Source: an uncultured Nitrospira sp.
Lineage (GTDB): Bacteria; Nitrospirota; Nitrospiria; Nitrospirales; Nitrospiraceae
Direction of reading: 5' to 3'
DNA length: 64,000 nucleotides
NCBI GenBank assembly: GCA_964556305.1
Contig: CAZKVY010000012.1
Span: forward strand, 5,224 to 69,223
Part shown: in pieces, positions 1,802 through 15,487 of the stretch
How positions within the stretch are numbered: position 1 is the stretch's first letter
Layout: each line of letters starts with the position of its first letter
The notes under the pieces: generated by a model
Database searches by the model: none
The model's input: only the letters and a program-made list of their open reading frames with translations
What the model was told of the DNA's origin: nothing
Position numbers and translations under genes: made by a program

Positions 1802-2662
1802 GCGGCAGGCGGGAACCCATTACACGCGTGATCGAATACAATTTGAACCCCTCGATCAGCCTGGAGACAAATTACCCGGGAGGATCTGTTCGAAATAAAT
1901 ACTTCTCTAAAGTTAATAACTCTGGACCCTCGCAAGCTCCTCACCCCGCACTCCCAAGACGCCTCATGATTCGCTTTGCCACAAGGCCCCATGCCATCTT
2001 CCCTGTTCTCCTCAACGACGCGATTGATGAGATGATCGAGAAATAGAACTTGACCTAGCCGAGATGAGCAGCAGCAGGCATTTGAATCGCTCATACCGAG
2101 CAGTGGCAAAGCCTTGGTTGCAAGAGGCCAACCACGAACTTCGCGCGCTGCAGGCCCCAGTAGCGTAGACGGTGCGGTACAAGCCCACCGACTATCACTG
2201 GCTGCTGCTCTATGAGGTGCTGGAAGTCTACAGCGATGGGGCCATGAGATGCTCACGGCCGTGTGTGCGAATTTTTTTGAATTCATCACATTGATTTTGA
2301 CCTGCTGGTCGAGCTGTTCTTTTGACTTCTCGGCGAGGAGATTCCGGACCTGCCGCTCGACGCACGCGAGCGCTTAAACATATCCCCGGAAACATTCGGG
2401 CTCACAGCGGGCATGAAACTGCATCCGGAGGAACTTGCGCTACGGGTCTGTGGCGTAGAATAGTGAAAGGGTTCGATGCGCAGGGATGCATTGTCCTCTT
2501 CCCGGGATCGACAACGTACTCGTCCTGTGCTGATGTACATGGGAACTAGGGGGCACCCTACTTGAGAAAACCGGGAATTATGCCCACAAGATTATTGACA
2601 CCTTGTAAGTGAATGCCAAGCGTCCTACCTTTGCCCTAATGCGACGCTGAAAAGGAAGGGCC

Positions 2663-2965
2663 ATGGATGATAGGAGCAGCAACAGGAGAGAGCTGATCGA
2701 GACCTACCTGGCTGCATACAAGTTTTGTGATATCCGGTCTCGCGATGAGATCAATCTCCATTTCTGCATGAACGCCGAAGGCGCCCGCTATGACCTGGCG
2801 GTCGAACGTGAATGGCTCGACCTGACGTCAGACAGGACCATTGCGGAAAGATTGGACGGACTTGAACTCGTTCCGTTTCTGCGCCGGAACAAGGCCGCGT
2901 GGGTCGGCGTCACCGCCACTGGCCAAGAGGTCATTACCCACATGGAGCCGGATGCCAAGTCGTAG
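2663..2965 (+). CDS. Hypothetical protein (100 aa)
   Basis: ATG preceded by AAGGAAGG; protein-like composition; no recognisable domain. Confidence 0.55.
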   Translation: MDDRSSNRRELIETYLAAYKFCDIRSRDEINLHFCMNAEGARYDLAVEREWLDLTSDRTIAERLDGLELVPFLRRNKAAWVGVTATGQEVITHMEPDAKS

Positions 2966-3082
2966 CGCAACTGGCGCGATGTGCGAGCGAGCCCTGCTGA
3001 TAAAGCGTCTCTGACGAATATCGATCCCATCACCTCATACGATCCTGAGGCGGTTGCCATTTTTGAACTGAGCTCGAGTACG

Positions 3083-3517
3083 ATGAAATTGGGTCTCGTC
3101 ATTTTCTGGGCACTTTGGCTTGGATTGGTGCTGTTGAACAATGTGCTCGATGGATTACGAGCACTTCGAGTTGTGCCTCCATACTGGAAATTCGCATCGA
3201 ATAACTTGCAGGTCATTCGAGAAGCGGCCGGACGCTATCAAGTCCCCCGTTGGTTGCCAGAGGTGCTCTTTCTGGGAGTGGTCTTGTGGGAGCTTGGAGT
3301 ACTGATACTGTTTGGTCTGGTTGTGGTGCGATCACTCACCACAGAAGAGCTGGCGTTGGGCACAATCAATGCTGCCTTTGCAGGCAGTATCGCTCTTCTG
3401 GCCGCCTTTATCATCGCCGATGAAATCTTTCAGCTGTACGATTTGGAGCATACTCACGTTCTATTGCTGATCGCGCAGGTCGTGACAGTACTCGCTGTCC
3501 ATCTGGTGCCCGCCTGA
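3083..3517 (+). CDS. Integral membrane protein (about 4 TM)
   Basis: Four hydrophobic segments with embedded polar motifs (NNVLD, WE, ADE, EHTH); start chosen at MKLGLV. Confidence 0.7.
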   Translation: MKLGLVIFWALWLGLVLLNNVLDGLRALRVVPPYWKFASNNLQVIREAAGRYQVPRWLPEVLFLGVVLWELGVLILFGLVVVRSLTTEELALGTINAAFAGSIALLAAFIIADEIFQLYDLEHTHVLLLIAQVVTVLAVHLVPA

Positions 3518-4711: not shown

Positions 4712-7030
4712 ATGTAGAGAACTCCTTCTGCAGGGATGACATCTGCCAGCCAGCATTCTGTACAATTCCTCCTAAGCGAAGGGCTCGTGCAAGCTGATTG
4801 CCTGGTAACCCTTGCGACCTCCTTCCGAGACGTTGGAGCCACCATGTCTACACCCAATCCTTACCTGCGTTTTGCGTCGCCCCACATCGTGCAGTGCTTC
4901 GAACAGGATGCGACGTTTATCGAGAGATTACAGGAGTACCTCGATGCAGGGATGAGCCGTGGCGACTCAGTATTACTCTTTGCGACGCCCGCGCACGTTG
5001 ATGCGCTCGCCCTGCTGGGTGTCGGCTCTCCTCCCCGCGATGTCGCATTTTGGATGCGGCGCAAATGCTGCAGCAATTCTTCAATGCACCGAAATTGGCT
5101 GGAGAGCAATTCCGGTTGGTGGTGGACACATTGTGCGAAGACGTGACCGAGCGAGGCACGGGACGTATCCGAATCTTTAGCGATCTCATGGCCTTGTTGT
5201 AAGAGAGGGGCGCCACCGAAGCGGCTATGCAGCTCGAATCTTTATGGAATCAATTGGCTATGCGCTACCCCCTCTCGCTTGTCTGTACCTACCCCACGCA
5301 AGATGCGTCCGAGCGGACGCGGTCCTTCATGGCTCAGTGGGAAGGCGAATGCGACCAGAGTCGGCTCCTGACCGCACTCCAGCAGAAAGGGGCGGCTTGG
5401 GAAGTGGAGGTCGCTCGACGGCGAGAACTTGAACGACACCTGGGACAGCGTGACGCGGAGCTCGCCGTTTTTTTTGAGCAAGCGGCAGAATGCCTCCCCC
5501 AGGTGGGCACTGATGGCATTATTATCTGGGCCAACAGCTCTGAAATGAGAATGTTGGGTTATGAGCCGCATGAATACATTGGCCGACATATCTCCGCGTT
5601 CCACGTCGATCAAGATGTCATCGACGACATCTTGACCCGCCTCCTGCGCGGAGAACAGCTCTATAACTATCCGGCCCGATTACGGTGCAAGGATGGGTCT
5701 GTCAGAAACGTCTTGATTCATTCTAATGTTCGCTGGGACGAAGGCCGGATGAGCTACACCCGCTGCTTCACGCGTGACATTACGGAACAGAAGGCGATTG
5801 AAGCCGAGTTGGACCGACGAGTGGCGGATCGCACACAGGAATTAGTCGACGCGCAACAAAAACTGAGAATGCTCGCGGCAGACTTGAGCTTAGCTGAAGG
5901 ACGGGTGCGCAAGACGCTGGCGAGGGAGCTGCACGATTATCTGGCACAGCTCCTCATCGTCGTCCGCATGAAGTTAGCGCACATTTCGCGAGAAGCGAGA
6001 GAGCGCGACACGCTGCTCCCCTTGATCGACGATGTAGACAAGGTCCTTGATGAAGCGATCACCTATACACGCTCCTTGATGGCCGAATTAAACCTGCCTA
6101 TTCTCGAGTTTGAGTTGGAGATGGGACTGAAATGGTTGGCCGATAAATTCAAAAGCCATCATTTGCAGGTGAGCGTTGTGGTGCCCGATACGTTGAATGT
6201 CCATCTCTCCGAGACGCACACGGCCTTCCTATTTCAATGTGCGCGCGAATTGCTGATGAACGTGGTGAAACATGCCAAGACGGAGACGGCGGCCATCATC
6301 TTGACATGATGCCAAGACCCTTTCCCTCCAGGTTTCCGATGAGGGAAAAGGATTTGGGCCTGCCAGTATGCCCAGCCGACTGGCCACTGATCAGGGCCTC
6401 ACCCAATTCGGCCTCTTTAGCATTCGAGAACGGACAGGAGCGCTCGGGGGGCGGTTCGAGGTGCGATCAGCGCCCAATCAAGGCACGCATGCAAAATTAA
6501 TCACTCCGCTCTCCGAGCTCGCCCCTACGCCACCAGGGGCACAAGTGACTGAGCGGCCTCCTGCCCTCAAGAAGGAGGCATCCCTCACTGCTGGAGGATC
6601 CGGCCTGCGCGTGCTCTTGGTGGAGGACCACGCGATGGTCAGAGAGGGGTTGCGCGGGATCTTCGAGGGGTATTCGGATTTCTCCGTCGTCGGAGAGGCG
6701 GTGGATGGAGAGGACGCCATCGTGCAAACCGAGCGGTTGTCTCCCGATGTCGTCGTCATGGACGTGAATCTTCCGAAGCTCGACGGCATCTCAGCTACAA
6801 AACGGATTAAGGCTGCCTTCCCCAAGACCATTATCATTGGGCTCTCCGTGCATCAGGCGAGTCAGGTCGAAGCCGGCTTCAGGAAAGCGGGAGGCTCGGC
6901 CTATGTCACCAAAGATGCGGCGGCTGTATCTCTCTACGAAGCGATTCGCCAAGCGGTGCGGGATGAGCGACCAGGGGATGTCCTGTTTCAGAAGGGGCGC
7001 ACAAGCAATTCCTCGACGCCAGAAAGCTAA
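4712..7030 (+). pseudogene. Degraded MEDS-PAS-HisKA_3-HATPase-REC hybrid sensor kinase
   Basis: RBS AGGAGG + ATG 4712, then TAG at 4715. MEDS motifs (HIVQCF, LDAAQML, RIFSDLMALL, LESLWNQL..YPLSLVCTYP) carry a frameshift near 5050 and TAA at 5200. PAS and ARELHD (H-box) lie in 5227-6309. A frameshift near 6305 separates ELLMNVVKHA from SDEGKGF/FGLFSIRER and the NarL-type REC (VVVMDVNLP). Confidence 0.85.
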
Positions 7031-8433
7031 TTGCACGATGCTCGACTCACGAGCCGCCAGTTCCCTTCCTGCGTCAACGACGGTGAAACTAGCGGTGATA
7101 ATTGATCTCCTATTTGAACTACCCTGCTTCGATCTTCGGCGCAACCAAGACTTGAATGATTGATGAAGTCCCGCGCTTGGAGAGGTTGCGGCACTGACAA
7201 AGCCCATCAGTCCGAAGGAGCAACGTGGGATGAACCCGTTGGACGGAGAGGCCCCGACACGTTTCCTGGCCCCCTCCCTTGAGCGGCTTCTTACACAATA
7301 TTGCGGAAGGAAGGGACTAAACTATGAAATGCTCTCGATGCGGAGGATACCTGGCAGAAGAACCATCAAACGATTTTTATTGTCCGGAGGGTCGGTGGCG
7401 ATGCGTCAATTGCGGAGTTCGCAAGGCCCACCATTCTCGTGGCTCCCGTCGATCTATAGATTTATGACTGCCCCCGATGCCGACATCAGAACTTGGTCCC
7501 GACCGGAGGATTTTTGTATTGCGGACAATGATGACTATGCCATCACCGCCTATGCCTTAGCCGTCGAACAACGATCGCGCAACGCGTCGCGCACCTCGAA
7601 GCACTGACCTACCAAGCTAATGCACGGTGATTTCAAAAATTTCACCATCCATTATGCACGGGGGGAAAGCGTACTCGACCAAGCCACCTTATCTCACCTT
7701 TCATGCCCTTGGCTACGTGATATCGCTTGAGCTCACTCCTTCAGTGCGACTAGCTCCTGCGTTCAATCTAATCAGCTAAATTACTGGTGCCGCCCCCTAA
7801 TAACTTCCTACCTGCATGCTACCCCACGGACGCCAGACTCCAGCCAGTGAGCCTGGCCCCACCTCCACACCTTCTCGAGGCCGCAACTCATTGCGCCCGC
7901 ACTTGGCCTTGGTATCCGAACGGATTCATCATTATCGGATCGGATACAACCTACATACTCAAGCAAGACGACATACACTTGCCGAGACAGTACGAATGGT
8001 CAATCCAAAGGAATTTGAGCCTTCGCACATGGCCTCTAAGCGATTGCTGAGTGGTACGCGAGTTGCTATTCATGAGGACATAACATGTAAATTGATGGGA
8101 TAGCATGGCGACAAAGAAAGCGAGGGCATCATGATCTGGGCCATAATAATTGCCGGAACTTATGTAGCAGGAATTTACGTTATTCGCTTGGTATGGTGGC
8201 AGGAGTGACAAATTCTCAGGTGCAGTGCGGTCGAAGGAAATACGCAGGCTCTCTGCGCTACACCCCGCTTGACTTAACTCACTATACGGGGTATCGGGAC
8301 CGGTTATCCTGCATGGCAACACAGATTCACCCTGAGAGCAACCTCTGCACGGATATCCCCGACCCATCCGCGTCGGACTGATAACCCTGGGGCAGTGTAA
8401 TTTTTGTCAAAAGTTCTCTCCGCAGATCACCCT

Positions 8434-8604
8434 ATGCCCATCGCGGCTGCTACCGAGACCTCGCATTGTTGCCCGCTTTGCGCCGGAATCGCGCGTCGCT
8501 CTGAACGCCGTGGGTGGCGCGATTACTTTTGGTATCTCCTGGGTCGCTTTCCCTGGCGGTGTCGATCCTGCAGTTATCGCTTCCATGCTGCCAGCCGAGA
8601 GTAA
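8434..8604 (+). CDS. Small Zn-finger-like protein
   Basis: CPLC...RRSERRGWRD...FPWRCRSCSYRF contains two CxxC pairs in 56 aa. Confidence 0.6.
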   Translation: MPIAAATETSHCCPLCAGIARRSERRGWRDYFWYLLGRFPWRCRSCSYRFHAASRE

Positions 8605-8697
8605 GTTCCTCTTCAGTGGTCCTGGTACCAGTTTGATAAGCCACACTGGTGCAGCCCCTCTAACGTGGGATGTTACGGTCTCTCTGGCAGCATTACA

Positions 8698-9081
8698 ATG
8701 CCCTCCATGCAGTTACATCTATCATCACCACGAACGTCGCGCGTCCGTCCCTCTCCTTCAGAAACCTCCCTCTCTTTTCAACGTTCCCGAGATCGGCTGG
8801 GAATTGTCTGTCCTGTCATGTTCGCCGGTGCCAGATTCATTGGAGAAGGGAGTGTGCTGAATCTGTCACTAGATGGATGCCTTCTGGAAGGGGAGCGGAC
8901 CATACTGGGTGGCAGCTATCTGACGGTACGGCTCCTGCTGCCTGACAATGCCCGTGCGCTGGTAGTAGAACTCGCGGCCGTCCGCTGGGTTCGCACGCAA
9001 TATTTCGGCCTCGAATTTCTCCGGCTACCCGCTCTGGAACTCAGCCGCCTTGAGCACTTCTTGAGTGCCCACCGTTGGTGA
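8698..9081 (+). CDS. PilZ domain protein (c-di-GMP receptor candidate)
   Basis: RxxxR (RSRDR) and NLSxxG (NLSLDG) motifs; C-terminal VRW...FGLEF. Confidence 0.85.
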   Translation: MPSMQLHLSSPRTSRVRPSPSETSLSFQRSRDRLGIVCPVMFAGARFIGEGSVLNLSLDGCLLEGERTILGGSYLTVRLLLPDNARALVVELAAVRWVRTQYFGLEFLRLPALELSRLEHFLSAHRW

Positions 9082-9263
9082 ACTTCCGCTCACTACATAT
9101 CAACGGCGTTTCCTCTGTGATAGCAGTGGAGCTGCTGGAATTCTAGCCCAACGTGGAGCCAATCGCTCCCGTATAACTGGAGGGGGGGTCTGAAATACTG
9201 CAACAATAATAGTACTTGGAAGAAACTATGTCCGCGAAGCCCAGACGGATTCGGACCCACGCC

Positions 9264-9710
9264 TCATTTCTCGCCGAATGAACGCACATACATTAGCACC
9301 TGCCAGGCCTCTTCTTCCGTCAGGACCAAGGGAATGAAGGAGGCCATATCTGTCCCGGGGCTCCCATTTTTTAGAATCCAGAATAATTCGCCGTCCGTGC
9401 GTGCCTGCTGCCACATCTTGTCCGTGAAATTTCGTGGAAGCGGGCCCTTAAACGTTGAATAGTCCAAATCCATACCTAGGCCCTTCCCATCAGCCCCATG
9501 ACAGGCACGACAGAAGGCTTTTCCTTCAAACAGAGCCTTGCCTTTCTCGCGTATGTCCGGCGTCACAGGAAACGGATTCGTCACCATCCGCGCCGATTCT
9601 CTCTGATCGATCGGCACGCGAGGACGCAACACCTCGGAATCCGCTGGCCAGGCCGCGGCCCCCATGCCGACAAAAGCCCAGGCAAGAAGAAAGAGGCGTC
9701 CGGCTTTCAT
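9264..9710 (-). CDS. Periplasmic monoheme cytochrome c
   Basis: Signal peptide, CRACH heme motif, PRNFT...GELFWILKNG..GTDM (Met ligand). Confidence 0.9.
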   Translation of the reverse strand: MKAGRLFLLAWAFVGMGAAAWPADSEVLRPRVPIDQRESARMVTNPFPVTPDIREKGKALFEGKAFCRACHGADGKGLGMDLDYSTFKGPLPRNFTDKMWQQARTDGELFWILKNGSPGTDMASFIPLVLTEEEAWQVLMYVRSFGEK

Positions 9711-9797
9711 CCCAGCATCTTCCTTTCTACAAAAAATCACAGGCGGAGAAGGCACAGAAGTGTGCCCCCCCCCGCCCGGCAACTTCAGACACCCTGC

Positions 9798-10346
9798 TTA
9801 CTCAGTTCGATGCTTGTGCCCAACGGACTGTGGATGCCCTACTTCTCCATTCGGCGCCTTCGCTCCGTCCGGCCAGAGATGAAAAATGATGCCGTCGGTC
9901 TTCGCCGCGACCGCAGCAACTTCTTTGGCCTGCGCATCCGGCATATCCAGAATCTGAACACGACCGGTGGCAATTTCCACCTCATGATCGTGGTAGTACT
10001 TATTCCAGATGTCCAACGGAACATGAGCCCGCGAGACGGACTTCGCCACAAAGTATTCGATGTCGGTCAGCAAGGCGTTCGAATCCGTTGATTCAAATAA
10101 TAAGCACTGCAAGATCTCAGGTGAGATCGGCTTACAATAGTGATGATACGGACCATGTACCGACCCGTCTTCAAATTTATGAGGGGCCATCACGTGGATG
10201 GTATACCCCTGGGCGGGTGTCGGCATGGCCTTCGCCGCCGCCGGAGCAGCCGCGGCCGTGGACTTTCTTTCGTGGGACGTTTCGGCACAGCCGGCAACCG
10301 TAAAAGCAGCCGCGCACAACCCGATCATCGCAATCGCATTTCGCAT
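9798..10346 (-). CDS. DUF1264/OBAP-like His-rich lipoprotein (paralogue 1)
   Basis: Lipobox VAGC; HHYC...QCLLFES...EY...HDHEVE...HLW pattern matches the DUF1264 family as recalled; RBS AAGGAGG. Confidence 0.75.
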   Translation of the reverse strand: MRNAIAMIGLCAAAFTVAGCAETSHERKSTAAAAPAAAKAMPTPAQGYTIHVMAPHKFEDGSVHGPYHHYCKPISPEILQCLLFESTDSNALLTDIEYFVAKSVSRAHVPLDIWNKYYHDHEVEIATGRVQILDMPDAQAKEVAAVAAKTDGIIFHLWPDGAKAPNGEVGHPQSVGHKHRTE

Positions 10347-10399
10347 AATGGCCTCCTTACCACAGGTCAACAGATCGCCGATCTCTCATACAAGCACTA

Positions 10400-10906
10400 T
10401 TATTCCGTCCTGGGCTTATGTCCTACAGACGTGGGATGCCCGACCGATCCGTCAGGGGCTTTCGCACCTTTAGGCCATAAATGAAAGATGATACCGTCTG
10501 TTTTGGCTGCGGCCGCAGCAACTTCTTTGGCCTGCGCATCCGGCATGTCCAGCACCTGAACACGACCTGTGGCAATTTCTACTTCGTGATCGTGATAGAA
10601 CTTGTTCCACACATCGAGTGGTACCGCGGAGCGGGAAACGGGTTTCGCCACGAAGTACTCCACATCGGTCAACACAGCATTGGGCTCAGTCGACTCGAAC
10701 AGCAGACACTGCAAAACCTCGGGCTTAATCGCTTTGCAGTAGTGATGGAAAGGACCGGCCACCGATCCATCTTCCATCTTGTGCGGGGCCATCACGTGAA
10801 TATCGAATCCGTCGGCCGGACCCGCCTTCATATCCGCGGCCGATACTGGCCCGCCGATGGCGAGCGCCAGCGTGCTCGCACCAAGCACGCAAAGATGTCG
10901 AAACAT
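10400..10906 (-). CDS. DUF1264/OBAP-like His-rich periplasmic protein (paralogue 2)
   Basis: Sec signal (…GGPVSA-AD); same motifs and highly similar to 9798-10346; RBS AGGAGG. Confidence 0.75.
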   Translation of the reverse strand: MFRHLCVLGASTLALAIGGPVSAADMKAGPADGFDIHVMAPHKMEDGSVAGPFHHYCKAIKPEVLQCLLFESTEPNAVLTDVEYFVAKPVSRSAVPLDVWNKFYHDHEVEIATGRVQVLDMPDAQAKEVAAAAAKTDGIIFHLWPKGAKAPDGSVGHPTSVGHKPRTE

Positions 10907-11017
10907 AACAGGCCTCCTCTGGTTGGGGTTGGAATGCGTTGATGTGTCTTATCGACAGACCGATCCATCGTGCCTCTCTGCCCGTAAGAGTCACCGCCGT
11001 CAGAAAGGATTCGCGTT

Positions 11018-12094
11018 TTATTTCGGCAACTTCGGCATGCTGAACTTTATCGGCTCTCCCGTCAACGCCTTCAGGAACATCACGAGATCAACTTTCTCGT
11101 CCGCCGTCAAATTCAGCGGGTGCACGAGCGGACTGAGAGTGGGATTGCTGCCGCCTCCCTGGTCTAAGAATTCGACGACTTCCTCCAAAGTCTTGAAGGC
11201 ACCGTCGTGCATGTAGGGAGCAGTTTCGGTAACACTGCGAAGAGTGGGGGTTTTGAACGCCCGTTTGTCATTCTCCGCCCTGCTGACAGTGTAACGTCCC
11301 AGATCCTCTTTCATCGGCCCTACTTGAGGAACACCGAGATTGTGGAATTGGTTGTCTGTAAAGTTCGCCCCGTTGTGACACAGAATACATCGGGCCTTCC
11401 CTTTGAAAAGACTCAACCCTCGGACCGCCGCTTCATCCATAGCCTTTGCATCGCCGAGCACATATTTATCAAAAGCGGAATTCGTGGATAGTACCGTACG
11501 CTCATAGGCGGCGATTGCCTCGGCAATGCCCTGTAAATTGACGTCCGTCCCGAAGACGGCTCGGAATTGTTGTTGATAGCCCTTGATCTTTCCCAGTTTG
11601 GTCACCACATGTTCGTGAGTCTCCGCCATCTCAACAGGGTTATGAATCGGCCCGATCGCTTGCTCTTCCAACGACCGCGCGCGGCCGTCCCAGAATTGCA
11701 CCTGATTAAATCCCGTGTTGTAGACGGTCGGCGATTGGCGACCGCCGACGCCACCGCCTACGCCAATGGACGTCTGCCGGGAGTCCGCAAATCCAGTCCC
11801 CGGGTTATGACAAAACGCGCAGGAGATCGCGTTATTTTTTGATAGGCGTCCGTCAAAATAGAGCTGCTTTCCAAGCTCAAGTTTCGCCGCGTAGTTCACG
11901 TTCGAGGACGGGGTGGGAACCACCGTCGGCAGTGGCCCGATATCAGGCACTGCTATGCCGCCGATGGTCACCGTTCCGTGAGGCGCGTATCCGGAAGGTG
12001 AGGCACCCACGAGACTCTCGCCGATCCCAAATGCAGAGACACCCAACAGCACGAGGATACAGCAGAGCGGCAAAACCATTCGCACCATATACAT
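11018..12094 (-). CDS. Diheme bCcP/MauG-family protein
   Basis: CAFCH and CILCH heme motifs, PTVYN, QFWDGRA, NPVEM, FKTPTLR, APYMHDG; N-terminal signal. Confidence 0.9.
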   Translation of the reverse strand: MYMVRMVLPLCCILVLLGVSAFGIGESLVGASPSGYAPHGTVTIGGIAVPDIGPLPTVVPTPSSNVNYAAKLELGKQLYFDGRLSKNNAISCAFCHNPGTGFADSRQTSIGVGGGVGGRQSPTVYNTGFNQVQFWDGRARSLEEQAIGPIHNPVEMAETHEHVVTKLGKIKGYQQQFRAVFGTDVNLQGIAEAIAAYERTVLSTNSAFDKYVLGDAKAMDEAAVRGLSLFKGKARCILCHNGANFTDNQFHNLGVPQVGPMKEDLGRYTVSRAENDKRAFKTPTLRSVTETAPYMHDGAFKTLEEVVEFLDQGGGSNPTLSPLVHPLNLTADEKVDLVMFLKALTGEPIKFSMPKLPK

Positions 12095-12256
12095 GACCTC
12101 TTGTCTGGATTTCGTGTCATAGAACCAATGAGATTACTGACATCGCGCCGGGTATTGTACGCAGATTCATGGATTTGGTCGAGACTCTGATTCACCGTGA
12201 GACATGCCTCGAAATGCGTGGCACCCGACGATGGGCAGTGAAAAGGCGCAGCTTGT

Positions 12257-12850
12257 CTAGCGCATGGTGGAGCGCATGAGACTATCGGCTTGCGGAGGAA
12301 GAAATCCCTGATACCCTTCATGCCGTTCGGCGAGTTCGAGTACCGAAAAGGGCTGTCCGTCAATCATCTCAGGAGCAGTAAAAATCTGCCGCAGGGGGCC
12401 TCCGCGCGCGCCGACGATTTCGCCGGCAAAGACCACGCCCTTTGATTTTAGTTTAAGGATTGCCTGCTCGATATTCTCCACTCTCACTGCCACATGATGA
12501 AACACACGATCGCCGAACTTCTCCACCCAACGCGGAATGATGCTGGTCTGACCCCGAGCGTCCGGATAAGCCTGGTCGACAAACAAGGCCGGATATCCGG
12601 CTTTCCTGAAAACTTTTGCATACCAATCGTCGTAATAAATCGTTTCATCGTATTCATACCCGAGGGCGATGAACTCCTCCGCCCGGTGATCGATGTTCAT
12701 GGTTCGGATGGTTAAGTGATCCATTACCGGCACAAACCCAACGCCAATGTCGTCCAGTGCGCGACGAAGCATTCCGGCCGCGCTATTTTGTGAGAGGAAT
12801 TCAGCCGTCATTCGTGCAATGATGGCATCAAGCTCAGCGGCTTGCCCCAT
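12257..12850 (-). CDS. VOC/glyoxalase-fold metalloprotein (His/His/Glu), HglS/HPPD-like candidate
   Basis: DHLTIRT, FHHVAVRV and LELAER motifs; RBS AAGGAGG; start overlaps the ALDH stop. Confidence 0.65.
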   Translation of the reverse strand: MGQAAELDAIIARMTAEFLSQNSAAGMLRRALDDIGVGFVPVMDHLTIRTMNIDHRAEEFIALGYEYDETIYYDDWYAKVFRKAGYPALFVDQAYPDARGQTSIIPRWVEKFGDRVFHHVAVRVENIEQAILKLKSKGVVFAGEIVGARGGPLRQIFTAPEMIDGQPFSVLELAERHEGYQGFLPPQADSLMRSTMR

Positions 12851-14390
12851 GGGTCCCTCCTTCCGCCTGCCCAAAAGTGATACCCTGCGCCAACGGCAAT
12901 TCAGTCCCCCAATTGATGGTCGTGGTCTGGCGTCGCATGTAGGCCTTCCAGGAGTCAGATCCCGCCTCACGCCCGCCGCCTGTGCTCTTCTCTCCGCCGA
13001 ATGCTCCGCCGATCTCCGCACCGGAGGTGCCGATGTTGATATTGGCAATGCCGCAATCGCTTCCCGCCGTCGACAGGAATGTCTCGCTATGGCGAAGATG
13101 AGTGGTAAACAGCGCAGACGATAGACCCTGAGGAACGGCATTCTGCATTTGAATGGCTTCATCCAGGGTTCGATACGTCATGACGTACAAGATCGGCGCA
13201 AACGTTTCCTGCTGAACAATCTCCCAATGATTCTGGGCTCGCACAATCGTGGGTTCGACATAATATCCCGGACGGGATAACACCCGTCCTCCACAGAGCA
13301 CCTCCCCGCCGGCTTTCCTCGCCACATCGAGAGCCGATCGATAGCGCGCCACCGCTTCACCATCGATCAACGGCCCCATCATGACGTGAGGCTGAAGCGG
13401 ATCCCCGATCGTCACCTGCTCATAGGCGGAAAGGAGGCGCGGTATCAGCTTTTCACACTGGGACTCCTGCACAATCAGACGCCGGGTGCTGGTACAGCGC
13501 TGTCCCGCGGTGCCGACGGCGCCGAAGACAATCGCTCTGGTGGCCAAGTCGAGATCGGCGGTCTCATCGACAATGATGGCATTGTTCCCACTCAGTTCCA
13601 GCAAACTCCTCCCCAGGCGCCGCCCGACCACCTCCGCCACATGCCGTCCCACCGGCACAGATCCGGTAAATGAGATCAGCGGAAGTCGTTCATCCCCAAG
13701 CATGCGCTCGGCCAGTTCAATCCGATCCGTCGTGAACAGCCCGAACACACCTGGGTATCCCGCCTCTTCCATGACGCGATTGCAGAGATGCTGTATGGCT
13801 AACGCGCAGAGCGGCGCTTTCGGCGACGGTTTCCACAACACCGTATTTCCCGCCACGGCCGCGATAAACGCATTCCAGGCCCAGACCGCAAGTGGAAAGT
13901 TGAACGCGGTGATCACGCCTATTACGCCCAACGGATGCCATTGTTCATACATTCGGTGCTGCGGCCGTTCCGAGTGCATGGTATGTCCATACAGCATGCG
14001 GGAAAGCCCCACGGCGAAATCCGCCATGTCGATCATCTCCTGCACTTCACCATCGCCCTCAGCTTTGATCTTCCCCACTTCGAGCGAGATCAGGCTGCCG
14101 AGGGCATCCTTTTGTTCTCTCAATGCGTGCCCGATCAGACGAATTACCTCGCCGCGTTTGGGGACCGGAACCGTCCGCCAAGACCGATATGTCTGCTGAA
14201 GGCTGGTCAACAAGGCGTCGTAATCTTCATCGGAGCACCCATACACGCGAGCTAGGGGCATTCCTGTCGCTGGATTGTGGGATTCCATTACCCCAGCCTG
14301 CGTCGTACGCGTCCAGGCTGAGGACGAACAGCCTCCTCCCGACTGTTGCTGAGCCAAACCCAACCGTTTGAATAATTCTTGTGTGGTCAT
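12834..14390 (-). CDS. Aldehyde dehydrogenase family 7 (piperideine-6-carboxylate / aminoadipate-semialdehyde dehydrogenase)
   Basis: TAFNFP, WKPS, FTGS, LELSGN, GTAGQRCT (catalytic Cys), ETFAPIL, GAEIGGAFGGEK.TGGGRE.GSDSWK.YM, typical of ALDH7. Confidence 0.9.
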   Translation of the reverse strand: MTTQELFKRLGLAQQQSGGGCSSSAWTRTTQAGVMESHNPATGMPLARVYGCSDEDYDALLTSLQQTYRSWRTVPVPKRGEVIRLIGHALREQKDALGSLISLEVGKIKAEGDGEVQEMIDMADFAVGLSRMLYGHTMHSERPQHRMYEQWHPLGVIGVITAFNFPLAVWAWNAFIAAVAGNTVLWKPSPKAPLCALAIQHLCNRVMEEAGYPGVFGLFTTDRIELAERMLGDERLPLISFTGSVPVGRHVAEVVGRRLGRSLLELSGNNAIIVDETADLDLATRAIVFGAVGTAGQRCTSTRRLIVQESQCEKLIPRLLSAYEQVTIGDPLQPHVMMGPLIDGEAVARYRSALDVARKAGGEVLCGGRVLSRPGYYVEPTIVRAQNHWEIVQQETFAPILYVMTYRTLDEAIQMQNAVPQGLSSALFTTHLRHSETFLSTAGSDCGIANINIGTSGAEIGGAFGGEKSTGGGREAGSDSWKAYMRRQTTTINWGTELPLAQGITFGQAEGGTHGASR

Positions 14391-14395
14391 TTCAT

Positions 14396-15487
14396 CTAGG
14401 AACGGAAACAGTCCCCGAAGCGATTGTCCAACACGTCCTGCAAGTGAAAATGTTCCTGCCTGATGAAGCCCCGATAGGCTGAGGGCTTGGCCATCACCAG
14501 ATCAAGCACGCAACAAAGGGATGACGCGGTGGTGACTTGAATCGCAGACCATGTACGTCCGAACATCGTTCGTGGATACACTTTCTTCACGTAAGTCTCC
14601 TCAAACAACTCACCCTGCCGGGTACCCGTGACAGCCGCGTACATCAACACCACATCCTGATGCGTCTGCGGAATCGCCCGCTCCAGGATCCGCTTGAGCG
14701 TCTCCCGGTCCTCGTTCAGCTTGAGATCGTTCATGAGAAATTGGATTTTTTCGCAATGGCCGGGGTACCGGAGGGTCTTGTAATTCATCGTTCGGACCCG
14801 GCCACGATAGGTGTCTGCTAAGGTGCCCAGTCCGCCGGAGGTGTTGAACGCTTCGTAGAGCAGACCGTCCAATTCAATCGTCTCGTATCCTTCCAGAGGC
14901 CTCAGGTGGACATCCTGCCCGCCTTCAATCCCGACGCACACGTTGCCGTACTCATTCAGCAACCCGTCGGTAGACCACGTCAGGGAATACTTTAAGGCAT
15001 TGCTCGGGTGGACCGGGAGCGCGCCCACACGCATCTTGACGTTGTCGATGGATTCGAAGTGGCCGATGAGGTCGTTCGTAACGATGCTGATAAAGCCCGG
15101 AGCCAAACCGCACTGAGGAAGAAACGCCCGATCGGCGCCCTCGCTAATCGCCTTGACGCGGCCGGTCACGGCCACGTCTTCGGTCAGGTCGAAATAGTGA
15201 AGATGATGAGCTCGCGCAATCTCGGCGACAGCCGGATTATAAAAATACGGCAGACTCGAGATAACAGCATCAAAGCGGTGCGAATTAACATAGGCGACCA
15301 CAGAGTCGGGTCGGCGTAGATCCAATGCGCAGGGAGTGACCGTCGAAAGCGTCAGGGCATCGATCAATCGTTTTGGTGCATCAAGGGTGATATCGGCCAG
15401 ATGCACCTGGTACTGCCCCATGGCCGACAGCAGCCCTGCAACGAGAGACCCGATTTTCCCGCATCCGAGCACCAATACCTGAGGCAT
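14396..15487 (-). CDS. Saccharopine dehydrogenase-family protein, probably lysine 6-dehydrogenase-like
   Basis: GCGKIG Rossmann motif, HYFDLTED, CGLAPG, LKYSLTWSTDGLLNEY, YKTLRYPGH; directly upstream of the ALDH7 gene. Confidence 0.8.
   Translation of the reverse strand: MPQVLVLGCGKIGSLVAGLLSAMGQYQVHLADITLDAPKRLIDALTLSTVTPCALDLRRPDSVVAYVNSHRFDAVISSLPYFYNPAVAEIARAHHLHYFDLTEDVAVTGRVKAISEGADRAFLPQCGLAPGFISIVTNDLIGHFESIDNVKMRVGALPVHPSNALKYSLTWSTDGLLNEYGNVCVGIEGGQDVHLRPLEGYETIELDGLLYEAFNTSGGLGTLADTYRGRVRTMNYKTLRYPGHCEKIQFLMNDLKLNEDRETLKRILERAIPQTHQDVVLMYAAVTGTRQGELFEETYVKKVYPRTMFGRTWSAIQVTTASSLCCVLDLVMAKPSAYRGFIRQEHFHLQDVLDNRFGDCFRS

Follow-up and report, generated by a model that had tools for sequence, protein, structure and literature searches.

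Small c-type cytochromes are the electron donors of bacterial cytochrome c peroxidases (CCPs), as in the pair formed by CcpA and c551 in Pseudomonas aeruginosa, whereas their di-haem relatives MauG and MbnH form obligate maturase and substrate pairs with methylamine dehydrogenase and MbnP, respectively. Another periplasmic partnership is that of the SorAB sulfite dehydrogenases, where the gene of an exported catalytic metalloprotein is followed by that of its own monohaem cytochrome c. The DUF1264 family comprises the plant oil-body-associated proteins (OBAPs) together with thousands of fungal and bacterial proteins and, to our knowledge, its biochemistry is not known. The present work concerns a gene cluster that combines elements of all these systems, mapping to positions 9264-12094 (minus strand) of a stretch of 64,000 nucleotides, hereafter the window, from an uncultured, nitrite-oxidising lineage I Nitrospira sp. 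(GenBank assembly GCA_964556305.1, contig CAZKVY010000012.1, positions 5,224 to 69,223 of the forward strand). The cluster encodes a di-haem protein of the CCP/MauG superfamily, two DUF1264 proteins and a monohaem cytochrome c, and its functional unit is probably a two-gene periplasmic redox module, composed of a di-metal DUF1264 enzyme and a dedicated cytochrome, to which the di-haem protein would be an optional addition.

The four co-oriented open reading frames (ORFs) occupy the coordinates given by an earlier note on this DNA, with gaps of 111, 53 and 87 bp counted from the di-haem gene, a Shine-Dalgarno sequence before each start and a hydrophobic N-terminal signal sequence, read by eye, on each protein, in agreement with the description of an undescribed periplasmic cluster of four exported proteins made in that note. 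The di-haem protein (11018..12094; 358 aa with a signal peptide) carries its haem motifs CAFCH and CILCH at residues 92-96 and 236-240, and it is followed by the DUF1264/OBAP-family proteins 'a' (10400..10906; 168 aa) and 'b' (9798..10346; 182 aa). The Sec signal peptide of 'a' ends VSA-A (the hyphen marks the cleavage point), and 'b' shows, as read by eye, a lipobox FTVAG-C followed by an Ala/Pro-rich linker, which indicates a pair made of one soluble periplasmic copy and one lipid-anchored copy. Last in the cluster is a class-I cytochrome c with a single CRACH motif (9264..9710; 148 aa with a signal peptide). For both 'b' and the cytochrome an ATG was chosen as the start, in the former case the one behind AAGGAGG, in place of the TTG starts of the ORF list (10370 and 9782, respectively). 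Pfam searches gave matches to CCP_MauG (E = 3e-61), to DUF1264 (PF06884; 6e-16 and 5e-15, or 58.9 and 55.9 bits, both above the gathering score of 25) and to Cytochrom_C (PF00034; 5e-10, 41 bits with a cut-off of 21). DUF1264 proteins 'a' and 'b' are 82% identical over 136 residues, 'b' being a tandem duplicate of 'a', and this duplication is typical of the genus. The closest public loci are those of Nitrospira metagenome-assembled genomes (MAGs), and the 'a' protein of Ca. N. defluvii is 95% identical to that of the window.

The conserved core of the cluster is DUF1264 plus its own cytochrome c, whose gene travels with that of DUF1264. Two samples were analysed, an even sample of 151 Nitrospiraceae genomes (147 of high quality) and a set of 72 loci taken from species-representative genomes, 68 of which had enough flanking sequence for an adjacency count. 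DUF1264 was detected in 128 of the 151 genomes (126 of the 147 high-quality ones), and a cytochrome c at the orthologue level (E <= 5e-49, 61-100% identity) was found in 124 of these 128 genomes, but in only 1 of the 23 lacking DUF1264 (Fisher p = 2e-21, uncorrected for shared ancestry), the remaining DUF1264-negative genomes containing cytochrome paralogues at ~50% identity only. Joint presence and joint loss of both genes are very clear, and wherever the survey listed both coordinates the two genes were neighbours. At the level of loci, 56 of the 68 show a same-strand cytochrome c homologue starting within 400 bp downstream of DUF1264, and they span Nitrospirota, Nitrospinota, Verrucomicrobiota and Binatia. 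Most of these adjacent cytochromes (52 of the 56) are at least 55% identical to that of the window, with a median gap of 105 bp, and the remaining four, from Nitrospinota, reach 38-46% identity. Moreover, the identities of DUF1264 and of cytochrome c to the copies of the window are correlated (r = 0.82). Together with the cupredoxin fusions described below, these data favour the proposal of the earlier note that the cytochrome c would be an electron carrier.

Regarding the DUF1264 proteins themselves, the motifs HxxxxH, HHYC, QC, HDHEVE, FHLW and GHP..GH are present in those of the window, as had been noticed before together with two conserved Trp. At least 95% of 66 short-type homologues retain each of the residues H37, H42, H54, H55, C57, C67, E83, W100, H105, H107, E110, H142, W144, H157 and H163, both Trp being included. 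The residues of the core HHYC...C...E...HxH..E are invariant or nearly so in these homologues and in 25 diverse sequences, and distant long-type members also retain them. The proteins of the window match only positions 3-122 of the 171 of the family profile, which defines a short subfamily, and the Nitrospira members are short (~140 residues in the mature form), exported and 23-29% identical to the long-type members. A confident AlphaFold2 model, with a predicted local distance difference test (pLDDT) score of 90.4, gave no meaningful match in a Foldseek search of the PDB (best E 0.23, TM at most 0.31), and a phmmer search of the PDB gave no sequence match for DUF1264.

The literature on DUF1264 consists almost entirely of plant or fungal omics lists, and the N-Zinclopedia preprint alone bears on function. 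Dated 2026, it independently counts DUF1264 among the novel folds, predicts for it a binuclear site in a buried pocket, and reports 0.5-0.9 Zn per monomer for a purified Salmonella homologue (10.64898/2026.10.18.759936). In the Nitrospira proteins, the invariant His, Glu and Cys residues are likewise predicted to hold two metal ions within a buried pocket of a size suited to small molecules. Both the invariance of these residues and the zinc of the Salmonella protein support the previous description of DUF1264 as a metal-site protein. Export of the short type through the Sec pathway favours the uptake of either Cu or Zn in the periplasm, and some long-type members appear, when read by eye, to bear twin-arginine signals. 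In a paper on Beggiatoa, 'DUF1264' designates a membrane domain, which probably corresponds to a different DUF.

The strongest hint at a redox role comes from two metagenomic proteins (P0241 and P0267) in which DUF1264 is joined to cupredoxin stretches, two in one protein and four in the other, in one case also with a beta-propeller, each of the fusion genes being located directly behind a multicopper oxidase gene. Cupredoxins and small cytochromes c perform an equivalent role, and therefore a cupredoxin fusion in one lineage and an operon linkage with a cytochrome in another would reflect the same partnership. In the two loci that show this arrangement (L077:4768-9303 and L085:909-4738), a multicopper oxidase bearing a cupredoxin domain at its C-terminus precedes the large protein of 2-4 cupredoxins that ends in DUF1264, forming a conserved two-gene copper unit.

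A further feature of the core is found in the intercistronic region between the stop of DUF1264 'b' and the start of the cytochrome gene, which contains a GC-rich stem-loop of ~24 bp with a U6 tail (9731..9786, minus strand; -31 to -36 kcal/mol, z = -2.3), with no comparable structure in the remaining three junctions tested in the window. Of 59 cytochrome-bearing loci, 57 have a stable structure (-20 kcal/mol or lower) past the stop of DUF1264, and the structures of the 59 loci have a median energy of -33.7 kcal/mol and a median z of -4 relative to mononucleotide shuffles. Their sequences vary among lineages, several with canonical U-tracts, and within the genus there are compensatory changes at five pairs of the hairpin. 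The motif is probably either a partial terminator/attenuator or a 3'-stabilising element, which would raise the levels of DUF1264 above those of its cytochrome.

As to the substrate of the putative enzyme, the best lead offered by the gene neighbourhoods is a small inorganic sulfur compound, such as sulfite, thiosulfate or a persulfide, and reactive oxygen or nitrogen species are possible as well. Genes for SorA/SorB-like sulfite dehydrogenases map within 5 kb of the module in 6 loci from 3 phyla, 4 of them co-oriented and directly downstream, and two further Nitrospirota loci (L028 and L032) have the gene of a SoxA/TsdA-like di-haem cytochrome c of 271 aa in the vicinity of the pair of DUF1264 and cytochrome. 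Long-type DUF1264 genes are also found within typical reactive-sulfur clusters on a plasmid of Pseudomonas fluorescens (pG69) and on another of Azospirillum (TSA2s), in the company of an ArsR-family regulator, a split YeeE/YedE, a TauE sulfite exporter, a rhodanese/sulfurtransferase, an MBL-fold hydrolase, Dsb proteins and c-type cytochromes. A tentative extension of the model, which we hold to be possible though rather doubtful, would regard DUF1264 as the catalytic subunit of an unrecognised class of periplasmic binuclear metalloenzymes, maybe copper-dependent and with a fold not seen among solved structures. The oxidation of sulfite, thiosulfate or sulfane sulfur, all of them small inorganic sulfur compounds, would then yield electrons for a dedicated cytochrome c or, in other lineages, for the fused cupredoxins.

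Several observations weigh against a redox module of DUF1264 and its cytochrome. The sole metal measured in the family is Zn, which is not redox-active, and the protein where it was measured belongs to the distant long type and was expressed in E. coli without its signal peptide (10.64898/2026.10.18.759936). In 12 of the 68 loci DUF1264 has no adjacent cytochrome (Acidobacteriota, Rhodoferax, Limnocylindria, Elarobacter, one Binatia and one Nitrospirales). The genomes behind the counts are mostly MAGs and lack phylogenetic independence, and the tallies of DUF1264, cytochrome c and di-haem genes in the 151 genomes were counted by hand from tables. The hairpin with its U-tract could also signal that DUF1264 and the cytochrome gene are transcribed separately. 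Finally, sulfur genes occur at only ~8 of the 72 short-type loci, with none in the window, and most contexts of long-type members are those of general-stress genes and not of redox or sulfur metabolism.

Some of these data would fit a DUF1264 protein of a non-redox nature, either a zinc hydrolase or lyase, a metal buffer or a stress protein, whose link to the cytochrome would come down to co-regulation or a shared localisation. The predominance of Zn in the Salmonella homologue and the lineages devoid of an adjacent cytochrome point in this direction, and so do the His-rich C-terminal tail and the stress or desiccation contexts of plant, fungal and many proteobacterial members (OsmC, HdeB, trehalose genes, CsbD, ProP, HtpG). 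Similarly, in Gallionellaceae-like contigs from four separate assemblies (L079-L082), a short exported DUF1264 with 56% identity to that of the window is followed by a gene for a VIT1-family iron/manganese transporter. However, the near-perfect co-occurrence and co-loss with one cytochrome c orthologue would be hard to account for without a physical or functional partnership, the covalent fusions to cupredoxins beside multicopper oxidases likewise, and Zn occupancy is a frequent artefact of cytoplasmic over-expression in E. coli. In any case, we consider a non-redox role unlikely, and a redox module made of DUF1264 and its cytochrome is the interpretation followed below.

The first gene of the cluster had suggested a different story, since the earlier note proposed that a MauG-like di-haem enzyme would mature the DUF1264 proteins or be redox-coupled to them. 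The motifs CAFCH, CILCH, QFWDGR, EEQAIGP, PVEMA and TAPYMH of this protein align with the peroxidases 1EB7 and 1IQC, and the inter-haem Trp (W135, equivalent to W94 of P. aeruginosa), the Gln104/Glu114 peroxidatic pocket and the T-x-P calcium site are all kept. Both classical axial residues of CCPs are missing. The distal His (His71 in P. aeruginosa), the ligand of the peroxidatic haem in resting CCPs, is replaced by Val112, the SIGH of the PDB enzymes being SIGV here, and Val occupies this position in 119 of 120 close homologues. Met275, the axial ligand of the electron-transfer haem, corresponds to Leu310 (AIM275 aligned to EFL310), a position with Met in 68 and Leu in 40 of the same 120 homologues, which indicates that the ligand exists in sister lineages though not in the protein of the window. 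Position 310 is also where MauG has Tyr294 (register Cys92 = Cys31, query 313 = MauG 297), the residue that, together with a His, ligates its six-coordinate haem and on which MauG chemistry depends. The scores fall below the cut-offs for both MauG (TIGR03791, 256 vs 444 bits) and MbnH (TIGR04039, 221 vs 363 bits), and a phmmer search of the PDB ranks the classical peroxidase 1IQC (211 bits) over MbnH (138) and MauG (93). Instead of mau genes, the neighbours are those of DUF1264, cytochrome c, a VOC protein and an aldehyde dehydrogenase, and no MbnP-type gene was identified among the scanned flanking genes (DUF1264, cytochrome c, VOC protein). The label of MauG-like is therefore only loosely right, and it does not extend to the MauG cut-off or to the Tyr ligand. 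From its residues, the protein is an enzyme of the peroxidase clade and not a MauG. Its peroxidatic haem is always open, and the sixth ligand of its other haem is variable.

The distribution of the di-haem gene tells it apart from the core. With orthologues defined by an identity of at least 66% in the 151 Nitrospiraceae genomes, the gene is directly upstream of DUF1264 in ~42 of the 128 DUF1264-bearing genomes, which represent several genera. Another ~39 (about 30%) have it at an unlinked position and ~47 (~37%), single-contig assemblies included, lack it, and it is present in 6 genomes without DUF1264. When the tier of 58-64% identity is added, the association between di-haem and DUF1264 genes vanishes (p = 0.81). 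Close relatives share a synteny of lysine-catabolic genes, di-haem gene, two DUF1264 copies, cytochrome and PilZ gene, in which the di-haem gene is cleanly missing from two loci (L022 and L025) and reduced to fragments in another two (L013 and L026), with DUF1264 and the cytochrome intact in all four, a behaviour unlike that of an obligate maturase. The di-haem gene is thus a facultative neighbour and its product probably not a dedicated maturase, and the conservation of a neighbourhood of DUF1264 and CCP/MauG genes, which the earlier note proposed to examine, holds for only about one third of the DUF1264-bearing Nitrospiraceae.

The oxidative modification of DUF1264, at a Trp or at another residue, by an enzyme of the MauG/MbnH type, in order to build its metal site or a cofactor, would nevertheless make sense of some of these features. 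Apart from the upstream location in several genera and the loss of both axial residues, DUF1264 offers two invariant Trp, the public annotation of a protein 95% identical to the di-haem one is 'MauG', and, depending on the lineage, the module has di-haem genes of three subtypes in its vicinity (upstream in Nitrospira and downstream in both locus L027 and Nitrospinota), which suggests repeated recruitment and makes some functional affinity likely, through either a shared cytochrome or peroxide handling. Against this possibility stand the scores nearer to classical peroxidases, a Leu or, in most close homologues, a Met at the position of Tyr294, the frequent absence or unlinked location of the gene, and its deletion or decay next to intact DUF1264 and cytochrome genes. 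Six DUF1264-positive genomes also lack any CCP_MauG gene, a number within the expected for MAG completeness of 91-99%, so this total absence was not counted as a decisive disproof of maturation. Most genomes have a second di-haem paralogue, and some member of the family might therefore act as a maturase, though altogether we judge a maturase role of the di-haem protein to be very unlikely.

The second paralogue of the genome studied here maps to another contig (C45, locus L004; 1066-2139, minus strand), is 46% identical to that of the cluster and has a Tyr at the position of MauG Tyr294, as the di-haem proteins neighbouring the module in Nitrospinota also do. A divergent gene for an OxyR-like LysR regulator (2521-3435, plus strand) lies next to it, which suggests that this paralogue is probably the peroxide-stress enzyme of the genome.

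The peroxidase affinities of the di-haem protein raise another alternative, a peroxide-detoxification operon where the cytochrome c would be the donor of the di-haem peroxidase and DUF1264 an accessory or a passenger. Such an operon would be in line with the known donors of bacterial CCPs and with the conserved residues of the peroxidatic pocket. Moreover, Ca. N. defluvii and Nitrospina gracilis, which lack catalase and superoxide dismutase (SOD), are believed to depend on cytochrome c peroxidase (PMC3578206). However, the cytochrome tracks DUF1264 and not the peroxidase, whose orthologue is often found elsewhere in the genome without this cytochrome adjacent, and it is the other di-haem paralogue, not the one of the cluster, that adjoins the OxyR-like regulator. 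A role of DUF1264 as a substitute for SOD was also considered and rejected, as Fe/Mn-SOD is present in 69 of the 128 DUF1264-positive and in 8 of the 23 DUF1264-negative genomes (p = 0.11), with no anticorrelation, and the genome of the window itself has a SOD. We consider an operon devoted to peroxide detoxification about as improbable as the maturation of DUF1264 by the di-haem protein.

Returning to the redox module of DUF1264 and its cytochrome, its most likely working would start with the export of DUF1264, which, with its new beta-rich fold and two predicted metals, would be the enzyme. The cytochrome c encoded directly behind would link the metal centre to the periplasmic cytochrome pool and hence to respiration, with electrons flowing from the enzyme to the carrier if a sulfur compound is oxidised. 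In the genus, the duplication of DUF1264 would provide a soluble copy and a lipid-anchored copy, and the stem-loop after the DUF1264 gene would probably keep the metalloprotein more abundant than the cytochrome. Finally, the di-haem enzyme of the peroxidase clade, where present, would most likely take electrons from the same cytochrome and remove peroxide. In this scheme, the gene order, the co-occurrence and co-loss, the fusions, the fold and the replaced ligands are observations, and the electron transfer between the two proteins, its direction, the metal and the substrate are inferences.

Other features of the region are less informative. The 162-bp gap upstream of the di-haem gene contains a sigma-70-like promoter match (TCGACC-17-TACAAT; 12154..12182, minus strand), a weak one given that the count of such matches in the region equals chance, and a weak terminator-like hairpin (9230..9246, minus strand), with a folding energy no better than that of shuffled sequence, lies 18 nt past the cytochrome c stop. 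No RNA family of Rfam was detected in or near the cluster. The upstream neighbours (12257-15487, minus strand) are a saccharopine-dehydrogenase-family gene, an L-piperidine-6-carboxylate dehydrogenase gene scoring above the NCBIfam cut-off and a gene for a small VOC-fold protein, a trio that adjoins the DUF1264 module in several Nitrospira lineages, even in those without the di-haem gene. On the other flank, a Cys-rich small ORF (CCPLC…CRSCSYRF, 66 aa; 8404-8604, plus strand) precedes a PilZ gene (8665-9081), and it is kept beside a PilZ-domain gene in related Nitrospira loci; no long ORF is found at 7030-8400. Other recurrent neighbours of the module are universal stress proteins, two-component systems and, in 14 loci, an outer-membrane beta-barrel encoded directly behind the cytochrome. 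In the window, a PAS/HisKA_3 'kinase' ORF within positions 5227-7030 (plus strand) ends at 6309 inside its ATPase domain, which resumes in another frame (…HDAKTLSLQVSDEGKGF…IRERTGALGGRFEV…) and runs on into a receiver domain. The whole resembles a single hybrid sensor kinase interrupted by a frameshift near 6305-6310, either a pseudogene or an assembly error. These two-component genes were discarded as regulators of the module, as their similarity to the kinase and regulator pairs flanking it in five other loci (23-37% identity) is merely generic.

The interest of the module goes beyond this locus. DUF1264 is present in ~85% of the good-quality Nitrospiraceae genomes and is common also to Nitrospina, the second of the two major groups of nitrite oxidisers whose nitrite oxidoreductase is periplasmic. 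Both genera are key to wastewater treatment and to the global nitrogen cycle, and we know of no metabolic model of either that includes DUF1264. Should DUF1264 be a redox enzyme, it would represent a new catalytic fold in periplasmic energy or detoxification metabolism, and the oxidation of sulfur compounds would imply an overlooked electron-donating or detoxifying pathway in Nitrospira, Nitrospina and many soil bacteria. The Nitrospira module, with one cytochrome c as a defined partner and a DUF1264 form that is short, soluble and folds well, makes the chemistry of the family directly testable. Furthermore, the annotation of the neighbouring di-haem gene as 'MauG', tempting but weak, is corrected by the present analysis.

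A last question to be considered is how this cluster relates to the systems mentioned at the beginning. As with MbnH-MbnP and MauG-methylamine dehydrogenase, a CCP/MauG di-haem gene whose product lacks the distal His is found beside the gene of an exported metal-site protein with conserved Trp. However, the di-haem protein scores below the cut-offs of both maturases and lacks the Tyr axial ligand, its neighbour is DUF1264 instead of MbnP or methylamine dehydrogenase, and the pairing is facultative, in contrast to the obligate pairs of known maturases and substrates. The classical bacterial CCPs with their small cytochrome donors (P. aeruginosa CcpA/c551, N. europaea CCP 1IQC) are the best sequence matches, sharing two CXXCH motifs, the inter-haem Trp, the Gln/Glu pocket, the calcium site and a small cytochrome c encoded nearby, but the present protein has Val for His71 and Leu for Met275, and the cytochrome co-varies with DUF1264 and not with the peroxidase. 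The order of an exported metalloprotein gene, presumably catalytic in the case of DUF1264, followed by that of its own monohaem cytochrome c is the one of the SorAB-type sulfite dehydrogenases, whose genes lie directly beside the DUF1264 module in several phyla, whereas DUF1264 has no molybdopterin domain and shows an unrelated fold without a solved counterpart. Plant OBAP1 and other long-type members share with the Nitrospira proteins the PF06884 domain and the invariant HHYC / QC / HxH..E core, those of Nitrospira being distinguished by their short length, export, low identity and linkage to a cytochrome. Finally, the best named relative of the cytochrome of the cluster is cytochrome 579 of Leptospirillum, from the same phylum (NF033864, E = 1.6e-30), which is a relative rather than an equivalog (106 bits vs a cut-off of 280), the present cytochrome being found next to DUF1264 and out of any iron-oxidation context.

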